A DNA stretch of 32,000 bases from Paenibacillus nasutitermitis (lineage in GTDB: Bacteria > Bacillota > Bacilli > Paenibacillales > Paenibacillaceae): NCBI RefSeq assembly GCF_014641075.1, contig NZ_BMHP01000001.1:1820171-1852170 (forward strand), written 5' to 3'. Each line of letters starts with the position of its first letter. Position 1 is the stretch's first letter. This document shows, one piece after another, positions 10,280 to 21,497 of this stretch. The notes below the pieces were generated by a model. It saw only the letters and a program-made list of their open reading frames with translations, was not told the DNA's origin and did no database searches. The translations under genes were made by a program, and so were the position numbers.

Positions 10280-11860
10280 TTGAACAGGAGTGCTCCCCCT
10301 ATGCTTTCTAAAAATCGCCTCGGCGCTGGACCAAAAGTTTATTTCAGACCCGAAATCAAAAACTGTCCGCATTGCGAGAAAAAATTAGTGCGTTCGCACA
10401 ACGCATGGAACAAAAAAATCTCTACCTTGACCGGCGTCATTCACGCATGGAGCATGGCTTATACATGTCCCAACGAAAGCTGCTCATACGCCAGCATTAC
10501 CTATAAATCAGCAGAAGCAGAAGCGCTAAGCATGAAGCATTCTTCGTACGGCTATGACGTCCTCTGTCTCGTTGGCGAGTTGCGCTTCAAGCAACATCGC
10601 ACCTGCAAAGAAATTGCAGACGCGTTGAATGAACGTGGCATCGTAACCAGCGAACGATACGCGCAAACGCTGTACGAACGTTATCAAGCGCTGTTGGCCG
10701 CCAGCCTCGACGATCATGTCAGACAAAGTTTGGCAGAGACCACGGCGCAAAACGGCGGAATCATCCTTTCCATGGACGGCGTCCAACCCGAGAAGGGGAA
10801 CGAGATATTCTATGTCATTCGTGAGGTATTCAGCGGCACGATTCTGGCGGCTCGGAACATGAAGAGCGGAGCGGCAGCCGAACTGCGTACGCTGATCGAT
10901 CCCATTATCGATATGGGGTATCCCATCGTAGGCATTGTAAGCGACGGACAGGTTTCCATCCGGCAGGCATTCGAATCACTCTTGCCTGACGTGCCGTATC
11001 AGTACTGCCAGTACCATTACTTGAAAGATATTGCCAAGCCTGTCGTGGATGCGGATCGAAAGCTCAAAATGGAACTGAAAAAGAGCATGCGCGGCCTGCG
11101 GGATGTGGAACGAAAAATCGAGCAGGCTGAGAAAAAGGCAACGGAAGCTTCACAAGCAAACGCAGATGCGAATCCTGACTCTTCAAGCGCCGCAGCGGAA
11201 ACAACCGTGCTCGCAGAAACGCAGGTGGCGAAGGGATATGTGGCCGCTGTCCGCGCGTTGCTTCTGGAAGATGGTGAACCACCGCTTGATCTACCGGGCA
11301 TGATGGTCTACGAACGTGCCCAAGCCATACAGGCGTCGCTTGCGCGATGCTTGACTAAAAAAAGAGCCTCATCTGCTCCAGAGTCTGGTCAGAATTTTCA
11401 GTAAACTTGGCGATCAGGCCTCGCGCTATGAAGCCGTAGCCCGCTGGACGAAGCCTGTTGCCCATATTGCGGCAGCCTTGGAACCAGACGAAGACAAGAC
11501 CAGCGAAACCGTTGAATGGGAAATGACCCACGTATTGTACTGGCTCAAACAGACCTATACGGAAGAGAACGATTCCGTTATGGTCAACAATGTGACCAAC
11601 TATTCCCGCGGGTTCTGGAAAGGGCTGTTTACCTGTTACGATCATTATTTCATCCCGCGAACGAATAACGATCTGGAACAATTTTTTCGCCGAACTGTCA
11701 TCGCCGAATCACGGGCCTTCGTAACTGGAACAGCTACATCGTTCGAAACGGAGAAATGGTTGTACTTGTGGACGATGCGCTTCGACAAAAACACGTCATC
11801 GCCCGTTTGCGAACTGTGAGCTATGAAACGTGTACGCAGCGTAAGTCTCACTGTTCTTAG
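10280..11860 (+). pseudogene. DDE transposase (family not assignable by eye) with an N-terminal Zn-finger, disrupted by two frameshifts
   Basis: CPHCEKK...CPNESC zinc motif, D-containing blocks LSMDGVQPEKG and IVSDGQVSIRQA, conserved PRTNNDLEQFFRR...RRITG. Protein-like sequence runs in frame 2 (10280-11363), frame 0 (11352-11693) and frame 2 again (11690-11860). The switches fall at the A7 run 11357-11363 and near 11688-11696. Confidence 0.75.
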
Positions 11861-13923: not shown

Positions 13924-14008
13924 TAACTAACTGTAGACACGGGCCAAATCAATTTTATATTATTCGTATATCCGTATATAATGGACGAAAACTCGTAGGA
14001 GGCCAATT

Positions 14009-14191
14009 ATGGATGCAATGTCAGTGAAAGAGGCATCAGAAAAATGGGGTATCTCAGAGCGTCGCGTTCAAAAGCTCTGTGAAGAAGACCGTATCCCCGG
14101 CGTGGTACGCTTTGGGCACTCTTGGGCAATGCCCAAAGATGCGGAAAAGCCACCTGATGGACGATTGAAATTTGAACGAAAAAAATCTTAA
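14009..14191 (+). CDS. Small helix-turn-helix DNA-binding protein (MerR/excisionase-like HTH)
   Basis: RBS GTAGGAGG. SVKEASEKWGISERRVQKLCEEDRIPG is a typical HTH_17/MerR-like motif. TATAAT at 13977-13982 lies upstream. Confidence 0.7.
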   Translation: MDAMSVKEASEKWGISERRVQKLCEEDRIPGVVRFGHSWAMPKDAEKPPDGRLKFERKKS

Positions 14192-14193
14192 AT

Positions 14194-14226
14194 CTACAGT
14201 CAAACTACAGATTACTATGCTATCTT
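14194..14226 (+). promoter_or_regulatory. Candidate vanR-vanS promoter with two phased CTACAG repeats (putative VanR boxes)
   Basis: CTACAG at 14194 and 14205 (11-bp phasing), 7 nt, then TGC-TATCTT (extended -10-like, 14218-14226). The geometry is the same as at 16876-16930. Confidence 0.6.
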
Positions 14227-14244
14227 TTTTCAGGAGGGATATTT

Positions 14245-14910
14245 ATGGGCGTACGAATTCTGCTTGTCGAGGATGACGAGCATATATGTAATACCGTCAA
14301 AACCTTTTTAAGAGAAGCCGGATATAAAGTAGACGCCTGCCTAGATGGTAGCGAAGCGCATAAAAACTTTTATGATAATGTTTACCAACTTGTCATTCTC
14401 GACATCATGCTGCCTGGTATAAGCGGTCACGAGCTTTTACGGGAGTTCCGCAAGATTAACAATACCCCTATTCTGATGATGACCGCGCTTTCCGATGATG
14501 AGAATCAAATCAAGGCGTTTGACGCGGAAGCGGATGATTATGTGACAAAGCCGTTCAAGATTCAGCTTCTGTTGAAACGTGTGGAAGCCCTGCTCCGGCG
14601 AAGCGGCGCGTTGGCAAAGGAAGTCTGCTGCGGCAAGCTGACGCTTTTGCCGGAAGATTTCAAGGTGGTTTATGAAAACAGGGAGTTGCCCTTGACAATC
14701 AAAGAATTTGAAATCCTTATGCTATTGGTTCAGAACAGGGGTAGGATGGTATCTCATGAAATTATCTTATCCCGCATATGGGGCTATGACTTTGATGGTG
14801 ATGGCAGCACAGTGCATACCCACATCAAAAACCTGCGAGCGAAATTACCGGATAATATTATCAAGACTGTTCGTGGCATAGGTTACCGAGTGGAGGAAGA
14901 AATGACATGA
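14245..14910 (+). CDS. vanR: OmpR-family response regulator VanR (VanR-B-like)
   Basis: Receiver domain (LVILDIMLPG, ADDYVTKPF) and winged helix (TVHTHIKNLRAKL...RGIGYR). Long stretches match my recollection of VanR-B (ILLVEDD.HICNTV, TPILMMTALSDDENQI.AFDAEADDYVTKPFK, LLKRVEALLRRSGALAKE). Confidence 0.9.
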   Translation: MGVRILLVEDDEHICNTVKTFLREAGYKVDACLDGSEAHKNFYDNVYQLVILDIMLPGISGHELLREFRKINNTPILMMTALSDDENQIKAFDAEADDYVTKPFKIQLLLKRVEALLRRSGALAKEVCCGKLTLLPEDFKVVYENRELPLTIKEFEILMLLVQNRGRMVSHEIILSRIWGYDFDGDGSTVHTHIKNLRAKLPDNIIKTVRGIGYRVEEEMT

Positions 14911-16247
14911 AAAATAGAGGAATCTTTTTCAAGGTATTCATTTATACAATAATTTTCTCGATACTGTTGGTTGGCGTGACGGCAGCCCTGCTATCTACAC
15001 AGATTATCTCCTATTTCTCACGTGTTCGATTGCAGGAAATCACCAGCACCTATCAGAGTATCGTTATCCAGTCGAAAGGTGAAAATGACATCACAGAAGT
15101 GGCGAGGCAGTTCTACGAAAAGAACCAGTCCTTGCAATTCTACATCAAGGACATGGAAGGACACATTGTTTACGCAACACCCGAAGCTGAAACATCCGGC
15201 ATCGAAAGCGGCGCACCACCTTACAGTAGCACAATAATGTTGCGTATGGATAATGATTATTTACTTTATGTGCTAAAAAGTGACCTTATCGCGATGGACT
15301 ACGATAAGTGGATTGTGCAAGCCCTCGTAGTGTTGTCCGCCATGCTTGCTGTCTGCGTCATAAGCACGTTTGTCTTTGCAAGGCAGATAACAAGACCAAT
15401 CAAAACTCTGGCGGATGCTACGAATAAGATGGCTAATCTCGAAGCAGTCCCACCACTGCCGGAGCGCAGTGATGAACTTGGTGCATTAGCCCGAGATGTT
15501 CATTCTATGTACAGCAAGTTGAAAGAAACCATATCCAAATTAGAGGACGAAATTCTGCGGGAGCGTGAATTGGAGGAAACACAGCGATATTTCTTCTCGG
15601 CGGCTTCCCATGAACTCAAAACGCCTATCGCAGCCACAAGCGTCTTGTTGGAGGGAATGCTTGAAAATGTAGGCGATTACAAAGACCACCCCAAATACCT
15701 GCGCGAATGCGTGAAGATGATGGACGCGCAGAGCAAAATTATTTCTGAAATACTGGAAATTGTTAATCTGAACAAAGGGAAAATCGTACCCGTTCCTGAA
15801 AGGCTGGACATAAGACATATAGTTGCTGACATACTTCCTGACTTTCAGATATTGGCTGAGGCAAACGGTCAGCGTATTGTTACGGACATTCCTGACGGAG
15901 AGGCCTGCCTTGCCGACCATAAAATGCTCCAAAAGGCGCTTTCCAACATCATTTTGAATGCGGTGCAGAACACGCCCAATGGCGGTGAGATTCGGATATG
16001 GAGTGAACCTGTGGCAAATCAATACCGCCTTTGCATACTAAACACAGGGGCAAGGATTGACGATGCCGTGTTGCCGAAGCTGTTTGACCCATTCTACCGT
16101 GTAGATAAGGTGCGGAGCCGGAAAGACAGGCGAAGCGGCTTGGGACTGACTATTGTGAGGAAAATGCTGGAGTCAATAAATGTTGATTTCGCTTTCGAAA
16201 ACGCCCCTGACGGCGTTCTGTTTTGGATGAACTTGCCGAAGGCGTAA
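14907..16247 (+). CDS. vanS: Sensor histidine kinase VanS
   Basis: ATGA overlap with vanR. Two TM segments flank a ~110-aa extracytoplasmic loop. H-box SHELKTPI, N-box ILNAVQNTP, G-box RSGLGLTIV. At 446 aa it is the same size class as VanS-B. Confidence 0.85.
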   Translation: MKNRGIFFKVFIYTIIFSILLVGVTAALLSTQIISYFSRVRLQEITSTYQSIVIQSKGENDITEVARQFYEKNQSLQFYIKDMEGHIVYATPEAETSGIESGAPPYSSTIMLRMDNDYLLYVLKSDLIAMDYDKWIVQALVVLSAMLAVCVISTFVFARQITRPIKTLADATNKMANLEAVPPLPERSDELGALARDVHSMYSKLKETISKLEDEILRERELEETQRYFFSAASHELKTPIAATSVLLEGMLENVGDYKDHPKYLRECVKMMDAQSKIISEILEIVNLNKGKIVPVPERLDIRHIVADILPDFQILAEANGQRIVTDIPDGEACLADHKMLQKALSNIILNAVQNTPNGGEIRIWSEPVANQYRLCILNTGARIDDAVLPKLFDPFYRVDKVRSRKDRRSGLGLTIVRKMLESINVDFAFENAPDGVLFWMNLPKA

Positions 16248-16272: not shown

Positions 16273-16806
16273 ATGAAACCAGAAAAGCGAAACACACTTA
16301 CAATCGCGTTGTTCGTAGTATATATACTGCTGCAAGTAGGAATTATCCTCTTTAAACTGCCGTTTTATTCCGAAAAATTATCAGACGGAATACGAGTAAT
16401 TAACCTGATTCCATTTCAGGAGTCTTTCGATGAAAACGGAGTTTTAATCTTGCGTGAAATTATTGATAATATACTTCTTTTTATACCGCTCGGCATCTAT
16501 ATCTGTATGCTAAAAAACGAATGGCCTTTCATGAAAAAAGTCCTTCCAATTTTCAGCTTAACTTTAGTGTTTGAAGTCATACAATTCATTTTTGCGATTG
16601 GAAGAAGTGATATTACTGATGTACTCGGCAACACGCTTGGAGGGGTAATCGGCATTGGCATTTATGCTTTATTGTTCAGAATTTTCAAAAACAGGACTTT
16701 TAGGATTATAAATATACTTGCCTTGGTAGTAACAATTTGCGTAGTAGCGCGTTTCGCCCATCTGTTTTACCTCAGCCATTTTGTCATGAAGCGTCTGCAT
16801 CCCTGA
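16273..16806 (+). CDS. vanZ: VanZ-family membrane protein
   Basis: 177 aa with 4-5 TM segments. VanZ-like blocks NLIPF, NILLFIPLGIY, EVIQFIF..GRSDITDVLGNTLGGVIG. It starts 25 nt after the vanS stop with RBS GAGGAG. Confidence 0.8.
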   Translation: MKPEKRNTLTIALFVVYILLQVGIILFKLPFYSEKLSDGIRVINLIPFQESFDENGVLILREIIDNILLFIPLGIYICMLKNEWPFMKKVLPIFSLTLVFEVIQFIFAIGRSDITDVLGNTLGGVIGIGIYALLFRIFKNRTFRIINILALVVTICVVARFAHLFYLSHFVMKRLHP

Positions 16807-16832: not shown

Positions 16833-16864
16833 GACCGACAGGGTTATTCCTGCCGGTCTTTTTT
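16833..16864 (+). terminator. Rho-independent terminator after the vanZ-like gene
   Basis: GACCGACAGG / CCTGCCGGTC 10-bp stem (1 mismatch), loop GTTATT, T6. Confidence 0.7.
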
Positions 16865-16875
16865 ATTTCTCTCCG

Positions 16876-16930
16876 CTACAGACAAACTACAGGTTGGCTA
16901 CAGGGAAAATACAGATTGCTTTGCAATAAT
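16876..16930 (+). promoter_or_regulatory. Candidate resistance-operon promoter with four 11-bp-phased (C)TACAG repeats (putative VanR boxes)
   Basis: CTACAG at 16876, 16887 and 16898, and aTACAG at 16909. Then 7 nt and TGC-AATAAT (16922-16930). The distal pair CTACAGaCAAACTACAG differs by 1 nt from CTACAGtCAAACTACAG at 14194-14210. Confidence 0.65.
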
Positions 16931-16987: not shown

Positions 16988-18025
16988 GTGAAAATGAAAA
17001 AGCTAATCGCACTCGTTTTAGCGCTTTTTCTCGTGCTTTTCCTCGCTGCTTGCAACAGCAGCACGACCACGCCGCCCTCGTCGGCAGCAGCCATTTCGCC
17101 GACGAACACAGAACTGCCTGCTAATTCGCTACAAGGAGATGCAGGTTCCACCCACACAGAGGACATTGAAAACATTTCGGTAGATATTATGGCAACAAAC
17201 GCCTATGTACTAAATGTTGATACCAATTCTGTTCTCTATCAGAAAAACAGCGATAAGCATATAGCTCCGGCAAGCACAGCCAAAATGCTTACAGCTTTAA
17301 CAGCCTTAGATTATTGCTCCCTTGATGATACGATTACAGTTGGCTCGGAGATAGACCTGATTGCCTCTGATTCTTCCAGAGCATGGCTTAGTAATGGGGA
17401 TACGATGACGGTCAGACAACTTTTAGTCGCTTTGTTGCTTCCCTCCGGCAATGACGCTGCGTACACACTTGCTGTTAATGCGGGGAAAAGGATAGCCGGT
17501 GAAGATGGCCTTGGAGCGCAGCAGGCTGTTAAAGTGTTTGTCGATGCGATGAATCAAAAAGCAAAAAAAGTTGGAGCAACTTCTTCCAATTTTATAGCCC
17601 CTGACGGCTACGATGCGGACGGGCAGTACACAACCGCTTTTGACCTTGCGCAGATAGCAAAAGTGTGTTTAGGCAATAATGCTCTGTCTGAAATTATGGG
17701 CAGTTACAAGATATATGATACATGGATGAATGGGCGGGAAGTTACTTATCGCAATACTAACGAGTTGATAAACCCTGATAGCCAATACTATTATTCCAAT
17801 GCTATCGGACTTAAAACCGGCACTACCGGGGATGCTGGTTCCTGCCTTGTTTCAGCGGCTGACATAAATGGACAAACATATATTTGTGTTGTCATGGGTT
17901 CCTCTGCGGGTATCAGATTTTCGGACTGCCTAACTGTTTTTAGTGCAATAGACCCGACAATATCCCTGCCCCAAGAAAACAATGCTACCCCTTCTGCTGC
18001 TCCCAGCGGACTGAGGAGGCGTTGA
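16988..18025 (+). CDS. Serine-type D-Ala-D-Ala carboxypeptidase (peptidase S11, low-MW PBP) lipoprotein in the vanY position
   Basis: RBS GAAGGAGG 9 nt before GTG 16988. Lipobox LFLAAC. Active-site triad of motifs SxxK (ASTAKML), SxN (PSGND) and KTG (LKTGTT). Confidence 0.85.
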   Translation: MKMKKLIALVLALFLVLFLAACNSSTTTPPSSAAAISPTNTELPANSLQGDAGSTHTEDIENISVDIMATNAYVLNVDTNSVLYQKNSDKHIAPASTAKMLTALTALDYCSLDDTITVGSEIDLIASDSSRAWLSNGDTMTVRQLLVALLLPSGNDAAYTLAVNAGKRIAGEDGLGAQQAVKVFVDAMNQKAKKVGATSSNFIAPDGYDADGQYTTAFDLAQIAKVCLGNNALSEIMGSYKIYDTWMNGREVTYRNTNELINPDSQYYYSNAIGLKTGTTGDAGSCLVSAADINGQTYICVVMGSSAGIRFSDCLTVFSAIDPTISLPQENNATPSAAPSGLRRR

Positions 18026-18063
18026 ATGGTGACTTTTAATGAAATGGAAAGACTGGTGTAACT

Positions 18064-18891
18064 ATGAGAAGAAAAAGACTAACGCAATTATTTCCATTCC
18101 TGCTACCGGTCAGGGTAATGCAACGGAAGATGTGTTTTTATACCGGTATGCGGCTTGATGGCCTTCGCTATGCGGGAACCATTGACGAGTCGCAGCTTCC
18201 TTACAAGATCTTTGAAGCGGGCTGCGCATTATACAATAGCAATACCGGCTTCGATATGATGTATCAGGAAAATAAAGTGTTTAACCTGAAGCTGGCGGCA
18301 AAGACACTGAGCGGTCTTTTGATAAGACCGGGTGAAACCTTTTCCTTTTGGCGGCTAGTTCGCCATGCGGATAAGCATATTCCCTATAAAGACGGTCTTA
18401 CAGTGGTAAATGGAAAACTCACCACCATGTCTGGTGGCGGTATGTGTCAAATGAGCAATCTGCTGTTTTGGATGTTCCTGCACACGCCGCTGATGGTCAC
18501 CGAGCGGAGCGGCCACAATGTCAAGGAGTTTCCCGAACCAAACAGTGACGAGATCAAAGGGGTGGACGCAACAATCTCCGAGGGATGGATTGACTTAAAG
18601 GCGCGAAACGATACCGATTGCACCTATCAAATTTCAGTGGCGTTCGATAATGAAAACATCATAGGAACTGTGTTCGTAGACAAACGACCCCAAGTGCTGT
18701 ACAAAGTCACAAACGGCAGCACCGAGTATTTCCGCGAAAGCGGCGAGATTTATGAATACGTCAAGGTTGAGAGAGCGGAAATTAACGCGGACACCAGTGA
18801 AATAACAGGGCAAAAGCTGCTCTACACCAACAAATGTAAAATCTGCTACCCTCTGCTGGATAACGCAGAAATCAAGGAGGCGAAAAATTGA
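18064..18891 (+). CDS. vanW: VanW-family protein
   Basis: At 275 aa it is the same length as VanW of the vanB operon. Long recalled matches (KRLTQ.FPFLLP, FDM.YQENKVFNLKLAAKTL.GLLIRP.ETFSFWRLVRHAD, GKLTTMSGGGMCQMSNLLFW, EFPEPNSDEIKGVDATISEGWIDLK). Confidence 0.85.
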   Translation: MRRKRLTQLFPFLLPVRVMQRKMCFYTGMRLDGLRYAGTIDESQLPYKIFEAGCALYNSNTGFDMMYQENKVFNLKLAAKTLSGLLIRPGETFSFWRLVRHADKHIPYKDGLTVVNGKLTTMSGGGMCQMSNLLFWMFLHTPLMVTERSGHNVKEFPEPNSDEIKGVDATISEGWIDLKARNDTDCTYQISVAFDNENIIGTVFVDKRPQVLYKVTNGSTEYFRESGEIYEYVKVERAEINADTSEITGQKLLYTNKCKICYPLLDNAEIKEAKN

Positions 18892-19859
18892 TGAACAACA
18901 TTGGAATTACCGTTTATGGTTGCGAGCAAGATGAGGCGGATGTGTTCCGCAGACTGTCACCTCGCTTTGGCGTCATGCCTACTATTATTAGCGACGCCGT
19001 ATCAGAAACCAATGCTATATCAGCCCCCTGCAATCAATGTATCAGTGTGAGCCACAAATCTGTGGTTTCCGCCTCTATTCTTCTTGCGCTGAAGAGAGCC
19101 GGCGTGAAATATATCTCTACCCGAAGCATCGGCTGCAATCATATCGATACAACTGCTGCTAAGAGAATGGTTATCGCTATCGGCAATGTGACGTATTCGC
19201 CGAATAGCGTTGCTGATTTTACCCTAATGCTGATGCTTATGGCGATACGCAACGCGAAGTCCATTGTACGCTCTGTGGAAAAACATGATTTCAGGCTGGA
19301 TAGCGTCCGCGGCAAGGTACTGCGCGACATGACAGTCGGCGTGCTGGGAACTGGTCAAATAGGCCAAGCGGTTATTGAGCGGCTGCGGGCATTTGGATGT
19401 CGTGTGCTGGCTTATGATCGCGGCCAGAAAATAACGGCAGACTATGTTCCGCTTGACGAGTTGCTGCGAAACAGCGATATTGTTACGCTTCATGTGCCGC
19501 TGGGTGCGGATACGCATCATATCATCGGTCACGAACAAATAAGGGGAATGAAGCAAGGCGCGTTTATTATCAATACAGGACGTGGAGCGCTTATAGATAC
19601 CGATGCGCTTATTAAAGCATTGGAAAACGGAAAACTGGGCGGGGCCGCATTGGATGTATTGGAGGGAGAGGAAGGGCTATTCTACTTTGATTGCACACAA
19701 AAATCAATTGATAATCCATTTTTACTGAAACTTCAAAGGATGCCGAACGTGATCATCACGCCGCATACGGCTTATTATACCGAACAGGCGTTGAGTGATA
19801 CCGTTGAAAATACAATTAAAAACTGTTTGGACTTTGAAAGGAGCCTAGCGCATGGATAA
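18891..19859 (+). CDS. vanH: D-lactate (D-2-hydroxyacid) dehydrogenase VanH
   Basis: RBS AAGGAGG, with ATG 18891 overlapping the vanW stop. NAD fold GVLGTGQIGQAV, catalytic region TGRGALID...PHTAYYT. Strong recalled similarity to VanH-B. Confidence 0.9.
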   Translation: MNNIGITVYGCEQDEADVFRRLSPRFGVMPTIISDAVSETNAISAPCNQCISVSHKSVVSASILLALKRAGVKYISTRSIGCNHIDTTAAKRMVIAIGNVTYSPNSVADFTLMLMLMAIRNAKSIVRSVEKHDFRLDSVRGKVLRDMTVGVLGTGQIGQAVIERLRAFGCRVLAYDRGQKITADYVPLDELLRNSDIVTLHVPLGADTHHIIGHEQIRGMKQGAFIINTGRGALIDTDALIKALENGKLGGAALDVLEGEEGLFYFDCTQKSIDNPFLLKLQRMPNVIITPHTAYYTEQALSDTVENTIKNCLDFERSLAHG

Positions 19860-20883
19860 AGTAAAAGTTGCAATCCTGTTTGGCGGTTGTTCGGAGGAGC
19901 ATGATGTGTCGGTCAAATCCGCAATGGAGATCGCCGCTAACCTGGACACCGAAAAATACGAGCCGTTATACATCGGCATTACGAAATTCGGTGTTTGGAA
20001 AATGTGCGAAAAACCTGGCCCGGAATGGGAAAACGGCAATGGCTGTTCAGCCGTGCTCTCTCCGGATAAAAAAACGCACGGATTGCTTGTTCTAAAAAAC
20101 AATTCATATGAAATCCACCATGTTGATGTCGCATTTCCGGTTTTGCACGGCAAGTCGGGTGAAGATGGAGCGATACAAGGTCTGTTTGAATTGTCCGGTA
20201 TCCCCTATGTGGGCTGCGATATTCAAAGCTCCGCGATTTGTATGGACAAGTCGCTGGCCTACATCATGGCGAAAAACGCCGGCATCGCGACTCCCGAATT
20301 TTGGGTTATCCATGAAGACGACAGGGCAGCAACAGATGCGTTTACCTATCCTGTTTTTGTTAAGCCGGCGCGTTCAGGTTCATCCTTTGGCGTGACAAAA
20401 GTGGGTGGTGCGGACGAATTGGAGGCCGCGATTGAAGCGGCCAGTCAATATGATAGCAAAATCTTAATCGAGCAGGCTGTTGTCGGCTGTGAGGTCGGTT
20501 GTGCCGTGATGGGCAACCGTTCCGAGTTGATTGCCGGCGAGGTGGACCAAATTAGGCTAACGCACGGTCTCTTTCGCATTCATCAGGAGGCCGAGCCGGA
20601 AAAAGGCTCCGAAAACGCGGTTATAACCGTTCCCGCACACCTTTCGGCAGAGGAGCGAGGACGGATACGGGAGTTTGCAAAACAAATCTATAAGGCGCTC
20701 GGCTGTAGAGGTCTTTCCCGCATTGATATTTTTTTACAAGATAACGGCCGCATCGTGCTTAACGAAGTCAATACGTTGCCCGGGTTCACGTCATACAGCC
20801 GTTATCCCCGGATGATGGCAGCTGCAGGCATAACGCTTCCCGAACTGATTGACCGCCTGATCGTACTCGCGTTAAAGGGGTGA
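19852..20883 (+). CDS. D-alanine--D-lactate ligase (VanA/VanB/VanF clade)
   Basis: 8-nt overlap with vanH. Blocks KVAILFGGCSEEHDVSVKSA, GEDGAIQGLFELSGIPYVGCDIQSSAICMDKS, FRIHQE.EPEKGSENA, LNEVNTLPGFTSYSRYPRMMAAAGI.LPELIDRLIVLALKG. The His in FRIHQE corresponds to VanA His244, associated with D-Lac specificity. Confidence 0.92.
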   Translation: MDKVKVAILFGGCSEEHDVSVKSAMEIAANLDTEKYEPLYIGITKFGVWKMCEKPGPEWENGNGCSAVLSPDKKTHGLLVLKNNSYEIHHVDVAFPVLHGKSGEDGAIQGLFELSGIPYVGCDIQSSAICMDKSLAYIMAKNAGIATPEFWVIHEDDRAATDAFTYPVFVKPARSGSSFGVTKVGGADELEAAIEAASQYDSKILIEQAVVGCEVGCAVMGNRSELIAGEVDQIRLTHGLFRIHQEAEPEKGSENAVITVPAHLSAEERGRIREFAKQIYKALGCRGLSRIDIFLQDNGRIVLNEVNTLPGFTSYSRYPRMMAAAGITLPELIDRLIVLALKG

Positions 20884-20888
20884 TAAGC

Positions 20889-21497
20889 ATGGAAAAGGGA
20901 TTTGTATTTGTAGATGAAATATTGCACGGTGTTCGCTGGGACGCCAAATATGCGACATGGGACAATTTCACGGGAAAACCAGTAGACGGATATGAGGTCA
21001 ATCGCATAGTGGGAACACTTGCCTTAGCCCTTGCGCTGTTGGAGGCGCAGAAGCAAGCGGAGGCTCTTGGGTACGGTTTGCTGTTATTGGACGGGTATCG
21101 GCCCAAACGTGCGGTAGATTGCTTCCTGCATTGGTCCGAACAACCGGAAGACAACCTCACAAAAGAAAGATACTATCCGAATATCGAGCGAACCGAGATG
21201 TTTGCAAAGGGATATATAGCGTCACAATCAAGTCATAGTCGCGGAAGTGCTATTGATCTTACGCTTTACCACTTAGATACGGGTGAGCTTGTTTCCATGG
21301 GAGGAAGCTTCGATTTTATGGATGAGCGTTCACACCATGGGGCAAAAGGGATTGCAAGCATGGAAGCGCAAAATCGCAGACTTTTGCGTTCCATCATGGA
21401 AAACAGTGGGTTCGAACCATATAGCTTCGAATGGTGGCACTATGTATTAAGAGACGAACCATACCCCAATAGCTATTTTGATTTCCCTGTTTTATAG
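20889..21497 (+). CDS. vanX: D-Ala-D-Ala dipeptidase VanX
   Basis: RBS AAGGGG. HGVRWDAKYATWDNFTGKPVDGYEVNRIVGT, Zn-site region SSHSRGSAIDLT and EWWHY. Confidence 0.92.
   Translation: MEKGFVFVDEILHGVRWDAKYATWDNFTGKPVDGYEVNRIVGTLALALALLEAQKQAEALGYGLLLLDGYRPKRAVDCFLHWSEQPEDNLTKERYYPNIERTEMFAKGYIASQSSHSRGSAIDLTLYHLDTGELVSMGGSFDFMDERSHHGAKGIASMEAQNRRLLRSIMENSGFEPYSFEWWHYVLRDEPYPNSYFDFPVL

Follow-up and report, generated by a model that had tools for sequence, protein, structure and literature searches.

A CTACAG direct-repeat pair ahead of vanR in Paenibacillus nasutitermitis as the predicted counterpart of the VanR-B site at enterococcal PRB

Results

The van cluster and its two promoters

The DNA studied here, hereafter the window, is a stretch of 32,000 nucleotides from Paenibacillus nasutitermitis that carries van genes in the order vanRSZYWHAX. 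This gene order has been catalogued in P. nasutitermitis and a few other Bacilli, in a study that leaves promoters and binding sites undiscussed, both terms having zero occurrences (PMC9689679). The features concerned are listed below by their positions in the window.

14009 to 14191, + strand: HTH gene of 60 amino acids, HTH_17 or excisionase-like (Pfam HTH_17, 27.4 bits; TIGR01764, weak)
14174 to 14193, + strand: A-rich tract GAACGAAAAAAATCTTAAAT over the end of the HTH reading frame, from the anchored alignment of 37 loci
14194 to 14199, + strand: distal CTACAG hexamer of the predicted VanR box, among the high-information columns in 37 loci
14205 to 14210, + strand: promoter-proximal CTACAG hexamer, 11 bp from the distal one and followed by a conserved ATT
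14218 to 14226, + strand: extended -10 of vanR, TGC (14218-14220) and TATCTT (14221-14226), in the same register as at the resistance promoter of the window and at PRB and PYB of Tn1549
14232 to 14237, + strand: Shine-Dalgarno sequence AGGAGG of vanR, read from the sequence
14245 to 14910, + strand: vanR, VanR-B-type response regulator of 221 amino acids and presumed binder of the box (NCBIfam vanR-B, 416.7 bits)
14907 to 16247, + strand: vanS, VanS-B-type histidine kinase of 446 amino acids (HK_VanS_B, 600 bits)
16273 to 16806, + strand: vanZ-like gene, the last of the regulatory transcription unit (vanZ-A, 80 bits)
16833 to 16866, + strand: strong intrinsic terminator between the regulatory and resistance units, stem GACCGACAGG / CCTGCCGGTC and a T-run
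16876 to 16914, + strand: four hexamers in 11-bp phase between the vanZ terminator and vanY, CTACAG at 16876, 16887 and 16898 and ATACAG at 16909
16922 to 16930, + strand: extended -10 of the resistance promoter, TGC and AATAAT, in the same register to the proximal hexamer as at vanR
16988 to 21497, + strand: resistance genes, from open reading frames and NCBIfam, namely:
16988 to 18025: vanY, PBP / VanY-D type
18064 to 18891: vanW
18888 to 19859: vanH
19852 to 20883: D-Ala-D-Lac ligase, nearest to VanA
20880 to 21497: vanX

The regulator had been described in the original prediction as a member of the OmpR/PhoB family, and it can be placed more closely as VanR-B type. Its score of 416.7 bits lies below the exact-type cut-off of 480 set by NCBI for the vanR-B model, though this is the best model for the protein; the VanR-A model gives only 113.9 bits.

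Ahead of vanR, the sequence reads as two CTACAG hexamers (14194-14199 and 14205-14210) with starts 11 bp apart and the spacer TCAAA between them. ATTACTA follows, then TGC, giving a gap of 10 nt (14211-14220) from the box to TATCTT. No hexamer resembling TTGACA occurs where the -35 of this promoter would be (approximately 14198-14203, which reads AGTCAA), and TATCTT, which agrees with TATAAT at four of six positions, is a weak -10 dependent on the TGn. The box thus lies over the -35 position and ends about 10 bp before the -10, a class II or pho-box-like layout. This is what the original prediction meant by the classical arrangement for an OmpR/PhoB-family activator, and on rereading the sequence its coordinates and spacings for the repeats, the -10 and vanR are all correct. 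The distances that it gave, 3 nt after the HTH stop codon (TAA, 14189-14191) and 19 nt before vanR, hold as differences between positions, and correspond to 2 intervening bases and to the 18 that separate the end of the -10 at 14226 from the vanR ATG at 14245.

Transcription of vanR is predicted to start 6-8 nt past the -10, at approximately 14232-14234, which is on the Shine-Dalgarno sequence itself and leaves a leader of about 12 nt. Such a leader is unusually short, yet the distance from the -10 to GGAGG is retained in Tn1549 and in nearly all relatives in our 37-locus alignment. Hence, the short leader appears to be a trait of the family rather than a defect of this locus. RNA structure is not indicated in 14160-14250: the predicted fold is no better than those of shuffled sequences (z -0.18), with no stable hairpin, and no Rfam family matches this interval, the single sub-threshold match being on the vanZ terminator.

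The arrangement recurs between vanZ and vanY. When the vanR promoter (P_R) and the resistance promoter (P_Y) are anchored on the proximal hexamer, both run in the order hexamer, 7 nt, TGC, -10 hexamer. The four hexamers of P_Y are read as two predicted VanR dimer sites. There is one hexamer pair at the regulatory promoter and there are two at the resistance promoter, in each case ending 10 nt ahead of the hexamer of the extended -10.

Comparison with the enterococcal vanB operon

VanR of the window is 80% identical and 92% similar to VanR-B of pMG2200/Tn1549 in a gapless alignment of 218 residues. The stretch GDGSTVHTHIKNLRAKLP is identical in the two proteins, and the C-terminal DNA-binding region is nearly so, including the residues that flank the predicted recognition helix. 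The promoters correspond as well. PRB of Tn1549 has CTACAG-GGAAA-CTACAG, 7 nt, TGT and TATCTT before vanRB, followed by a short leader, GGAGG and ATG, and from the start of the proximal hexamer to the -10 there are 16 nt at both PRB and the vanR promoter of the window. PYB has three CTACAG and one GTACAG in 11-bp phase, 7 nt, TGC and CATAAT before vanYB. The alignment with Tn1549-type vanB operons proposed in the original prediction therefore finds the motif in the same place (CTACAG-N5-CTACAG, 7 nt, TGT, TATCTT). The single site that it gave for the regulatory promoter likewise fits, as Tn1549 and the window both have one hexamer pair there and two pairs at the resistance promoter. Given this common layout, the two promoters of the window can be regarded as orthologues of PRB and PYB. 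On these grounds the CTACAG pair is the predicted Paenibacillus counterpart of the VanR-B site at PRB, and an ordinary new example of a known switch.

The two systems are not the same in every respect. The spacer is TCAAA here and GGAAA in Tn1549, and the base before the distal hexamer is T here and A there. An intact HTH gene abuts the box in the window, whereas Tn1549 retains only a relic of approximately 45 nt. The regulatory transcription unit of the window also includes vanZ, unlike that of Tn1549 vanB, and its resistance genes are VanA-like and VanY-D-like rather than of VanB type. Furthermore, the cluster of the window lies on the chromosome of a soil/termite Paenibacillus, that of Tn1549 on a conjugative transposon. 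The terminator hairpin ahead of the resistance promoter, GACCGACAGG ... CCTGCCGGTC with its T-run, is almost base-for-base common to the window (16833-16866) and Tn1549 on pMG2200 (L001:9030-9062); it follows vanZ in Paenibacillus and vanS in Tn1549.

Conservation of the box among VanR-B-type loci

A VanR scan of one genome per species returned 53 loci, and the 40 in which VanR is at least 58% identical were examined for the box. In most of these it lies about 50 nt before the vanR start. The loci include members of Paenibacillus, Brevibacillus, Desulforamulus, Marasmitruncus, Hungatella, Lacrimispora, Oscillospiraceae, Peptococcaceae and Coriobacteriales, and the same arrangement is found on a Bacillus thuringiensis plasmid. 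Box and -10 together are retained in 37 distinct VanR-B-type loci from Paenibacillus, the Bacillus plasmid, Clostridia and Coriobacteriales. Absence of the motif from homologous clusters, which the original prediction had named as grounds for its own rejection, is thus not what is observed. Within 90 nt of the presumed vanR start, the box is absent from six VanR-B-like loci (L021, L025, L030, L038, L039 and L044).

The consensus of the 37 loci is aAaCTACAGg.AAAcTACAGATTgCt.tg.TATc.TT. Its columns of highest information are those of the two TACAG cores, of the AAA and AGATT that respectively precede and follow the proximal core, and of the -10 (TAT..TT). Conservation is strongest at the proximal hexamer, which is retained even in three loci where VanR is 63-65% identical (L034-L036). 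A subset of 27 loci gives pairwise identities of 0.96 (hexamers), 0.57 (third codon positions in vanR) and 0.28 (DNA 26-60 nt further upstream); as these loci were chosen for having the box, the value of 0.96 is inflated and just the contrast with the flanks is informative. A scan for phased hexamers found two at vanR; past vanS/vanZ, 2.0-2.8 kb downstream, there were four in most cases and two or three in some. All are on the coding strand and none on the opposite strand.

The B. thuringiensis plasmid pH3-552 (L002, 7948-10640) carries a VanB-type vanR-vanS-vanZ set, with a VanR that is 84% identical and the box before vanR; a CTACAG pair follows vanZ at 10628, and the next genes encode DUF4879 and DUF3472 proteins, with no vanHAX. 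It resembles an orphan sensor module of the VanB type that drives other genes. One Clostridia MAG locus (L042:5992 and 6959; L018:6091) has, downstream of vanS, two separate arrays of four hexamers at a distance of about 1 kb from each other, which suggests two VanR-controlled promoters within the resistance part.

A probable pho-box-style site for autoactivation by VanR

In a pho box, two direct repeats with 11-bp periodicity take the place of the -35 hexamer, and 10 bp separate their end from the -10. The vanR site resembles that of E. coli in having 11-bp direct repeats in place of the -35, and an OmpR/PhoB-family regulator that forms a dimer on phosphorylation. It differs in the repeat itself (CTACAG here, CTGTCAT there), in its extended -10 and in a regulon that is apparently confined to van genes. 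If a start 7 nt past the -10 is assumed, the hexamer pair of the window is centred near -31/-32, and at P_Y one pair is offset from the other by 22 bp. Depardieu, Courvalin and Kolb (Mol Microbiol, 2005) reportedly found VanRB at one site centred at -32.5 in PRB and at two, centred at -33.5 and -55.5, in PYB; the computed centres fit these positions.

Published work on the enterococcal protein points the same way. VanRB binds its own promoter PRB as well as PYB, with an affinity that is increased by phosphorylation (PMC4405338), and VanR has been classed with PhoB among the activators that contact sigma from a box overlapping the -35 (PMC3335776; PMC4482077, both citing Depardieu et al. 2005). 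The supplements of an Enterococcus dRNA-seq atlas, searched by vanRB/vanYB locus tags, gave no start site for vanRB (PMC7724050).

We consider it highly probable (roughly 0.9) that the CTACAG pair is a pho-box-style activator site over the -35, through which phospho-VanR would autoactivate vanR-vanS-vanZ. Head-to-tail repeats of 11 bp, the missing -35, the gap of 10 nt and a cognate OmpR/PhoB-type regulator together point to a single site for a VanR~P dimer. Its two winged-helix domains would lie head-to-tail on the direct repeats, on a single face of the DNA and separated by one helical turn. The box would stand in for the missing -35 hexamer, and the pho-box geometry, with the repeats over that position and 10 nt to the extended -10, suggests that VanR~P would act through sigma region 4, recruiting or stabilising RNA polymerase by class II activation. 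The outcome would be positive autoregulation of vanR-vanS-vanZ, while the doubled site at 16876-16914 would switch on vanY, vanW, vanH, the ligase gene and vanX in a cooperative, switch-like induction. Basal VanRS would probably be supplied by read-through from the HTH gene, whose promoter looks constitutive. Binding, start site, sigma contact and read-through are in this scheme what we infer from the layout.

The upstream HTH gene and alternative readings of the box

The 60-residue HTH gene has sigma-70-like promoter-like sites of its own at 13934-13982. As no terminator was found between this gene and vanR, it is the likely source of basal vanRS read-through. This fits E. faecalis V583, in which a long transcript begun far upstream ends with vanRB-vanSB (PMC4408782). 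An inverted CTACAG (13931-13936, - strand) overlaps the -35-like TAGACA of the HTH promoter and recurs in the near-identical P. mendelii locus; this single copy is absent from the Peptococcaceae orthologue and is probably due to chance.

Among approximately 40 loci that keep the box, an intact HTH orthologue adjoins vanR in only two (L009 and L015), elsewhere being reduced to a relic. The A-rich tract over the end of its reading frame (14174-14193) is moderately conserved even where that frame is destroyed. It lies at about -40 to -60, which is where an UP element would be, and similarity between the window and the P. jilunlii locus (L010) starts precisely at this tract. From sequence comparison, the tract is a candidate for either an UP-like element or a plain relic of ancestry. 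In Tn1549 on pMG2200 (L001:6895-6947), the stretch of 45-50 nt that precedes the PRB box is homologous to the 3' end of the HTH gene (window 14145-14193) that adjoins the box in loci of Paenibacillus and Clostridia; beyond this stretch, in the upstream direction, similarity is lost. The vanB operon seems, then, to have kept the remnant of an ancestral junction between the HTH gene and vanR. About 1 kb upstream of vanRB, Tn1549 encodes a full-length HTH homologue with 50% identity (L001:5873-6058).

These observations can be extended to a larger module, in which the A-rich tract and the HTH gene would count among the ancestral, functional components of the VanB-type regulatory unit, and enterococcal vanB, with its 45-nt relic, a derived form. 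The tract could then be UP-like, and the HTH gene could serve as a read-through feeder or as a VanU-like third regulator. We regard this extension as doubtful.

It is in our estimate quite unlikely that VanR binds the box while vanRS are transcribed mainly from the HTH promoter, with VanR modulating read-through in a roadblock or anti-termination-like manner, or with some other -10 in use. The absence of a terminator between the HTH gene and vanR, a predicted start that would fall on the Shine-Dalgarno sequence and the long transcript of V583 all speak for such an arrangement. However, TGn and TAT..T are conserved at a fixed 10 nt from the box in 37 loci, and many loci keep the box and -10 yet have lost the HTH gene and its promoter. 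The alternative -10, TACTAT (14213-14218), is unconserved and too near the box, just 2 nt away. Moreover, the same unit of box and -10 occurs at the resistance promoter, where initiation must be independent because a terminator lies ahead of it.

The repeats might instead be the operator of the small HTH protein itself, acting as a VanU-like third regulator, rather than that of VanR. The first hexamer begins 3 nt past the HTH stop codon, the vanG cluster encodes a small HTH repressor upstream of vanRS (PMC4405338), and the HTH_17 homologue of Tn1549 is present upstream of vanRB. We nevertheless hold this to be very unlikely, since the box is kept in some 40 loci of which just two have the HTH gene intact and adjacent, while its occurrence goes with that of VanR-B-type regulators and it is also present at the resistance promoter. 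An 11-bp head-to-tail repeat arrangement is the signature of OmpR/PhoB proteins and not of a small HTH dimer, and VanRB binding at PRB has been published (PMC4405338).

Restriction of the motif to the van cluster

Within the 32-kb window, exact CTACAG-N5-CTACAG occurs three times (14194, 16876 and 16887), with a one-mismatch copy at 16898. These four matches all fall in the two van intergenic regions; the remaining matches in the window have 2-3 mismatches. By our arithmetic, about 0.004 exact matches would be expected for 12 fixed bases in 64 kb, counting both strands. In the genome as a whole (8.29 Mb in 33 contigs), the more specific TACAG-N6-TACAGAT is found exactly twice, at P_R and P_Y, and a reversed control pattern is found at zero sites. 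The looser CTACAG-N5-MTACAG has six matches, four of them from the two van promoters, against a chance expectation of about two. The two others (C2:1503462, between DEAD-box helicase and YitT-family genes, and C3:513519) are without the ATT/TGn/-10 register, their number is at chance level, and we do not count them as regulon members. As the specific pattern is confined to the two van promoters, the VanR regulon of this genome appears to be limited to the van cluster.

Evenly sampled, 301 genomes from this family include 18 with the 19-nt pattern, and the reversed control gives about 11 matches. Approximately half of the matches look random, having non-AAA spacers, and the others have box-like spacers. 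Two other genomes of this sample have pairs of matches 2.7 kb apart on one strand, as here.

A chance repeat without function might draw on these random-looking matches in other Paenibacillaceae, where the reversed control gives about half as many as the real pattern, and on a mild over-representation of the lone CTACAG in the window (12 against 6.3 expected), but such a reading is effectively refuted by exact phased pairs that occur solely at two van promoters in 8.29 Mb and by a position, orientation and register to the -10 that are conserved from Paenibacillus through Enterococcus to Coriobacteriales.

Discussion

The CTACAG pair at vanR can be assigned, by its sequence context, to the PRB-type VanR-B boxes, a kind that is already known. 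It consists of 11-bp direct (C/A)TACAG repeats, is orthologous to the element of Tn1549, has a VanR-B-type gene downstream and is doubled at the resistance promoter. The sites of VanR-A (PR and PH of Tn1546) and of VanRG (PYG) are alike in being more numerous at the resistance promoter than at the regulatory promoter, which has one, and in a binding that is enhanced by phosphorylation; unlike the present box, they contain a 12-bp motif, (T/C)CGTANGAAA(T/A)T, upstream of the -35 (PMC4405338). VanR-A is only distantly related to the VanR studied here.

Little new biology is added by this example, the modest gain being a family-wide consensus and a conserved layout of two plus four hexamers. Across Bacilli, Clostridia and Coriobacteriales, the VanB-type wiring moves intact with vanRS-B. 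In this wiring, the regulatory promoter would have a single VanR dimer site and the resistance promoter a pair of them, with 10 nt to the extended -10 at both. The wiring persists where it is attached to enzyme genes of a different type, such as those for the VanA-like ligase and the VanY-D-type carboxypeptidase of the window. The consensus aAaCTACAGg.AAAcTACAGATT together with TGnTATc.TT can be used to annotate VanB-type inducible promoters in environmental van clusters, and it predicts that such clusters would be inducible by vancomycin through the switch that operates in clinical vanB.
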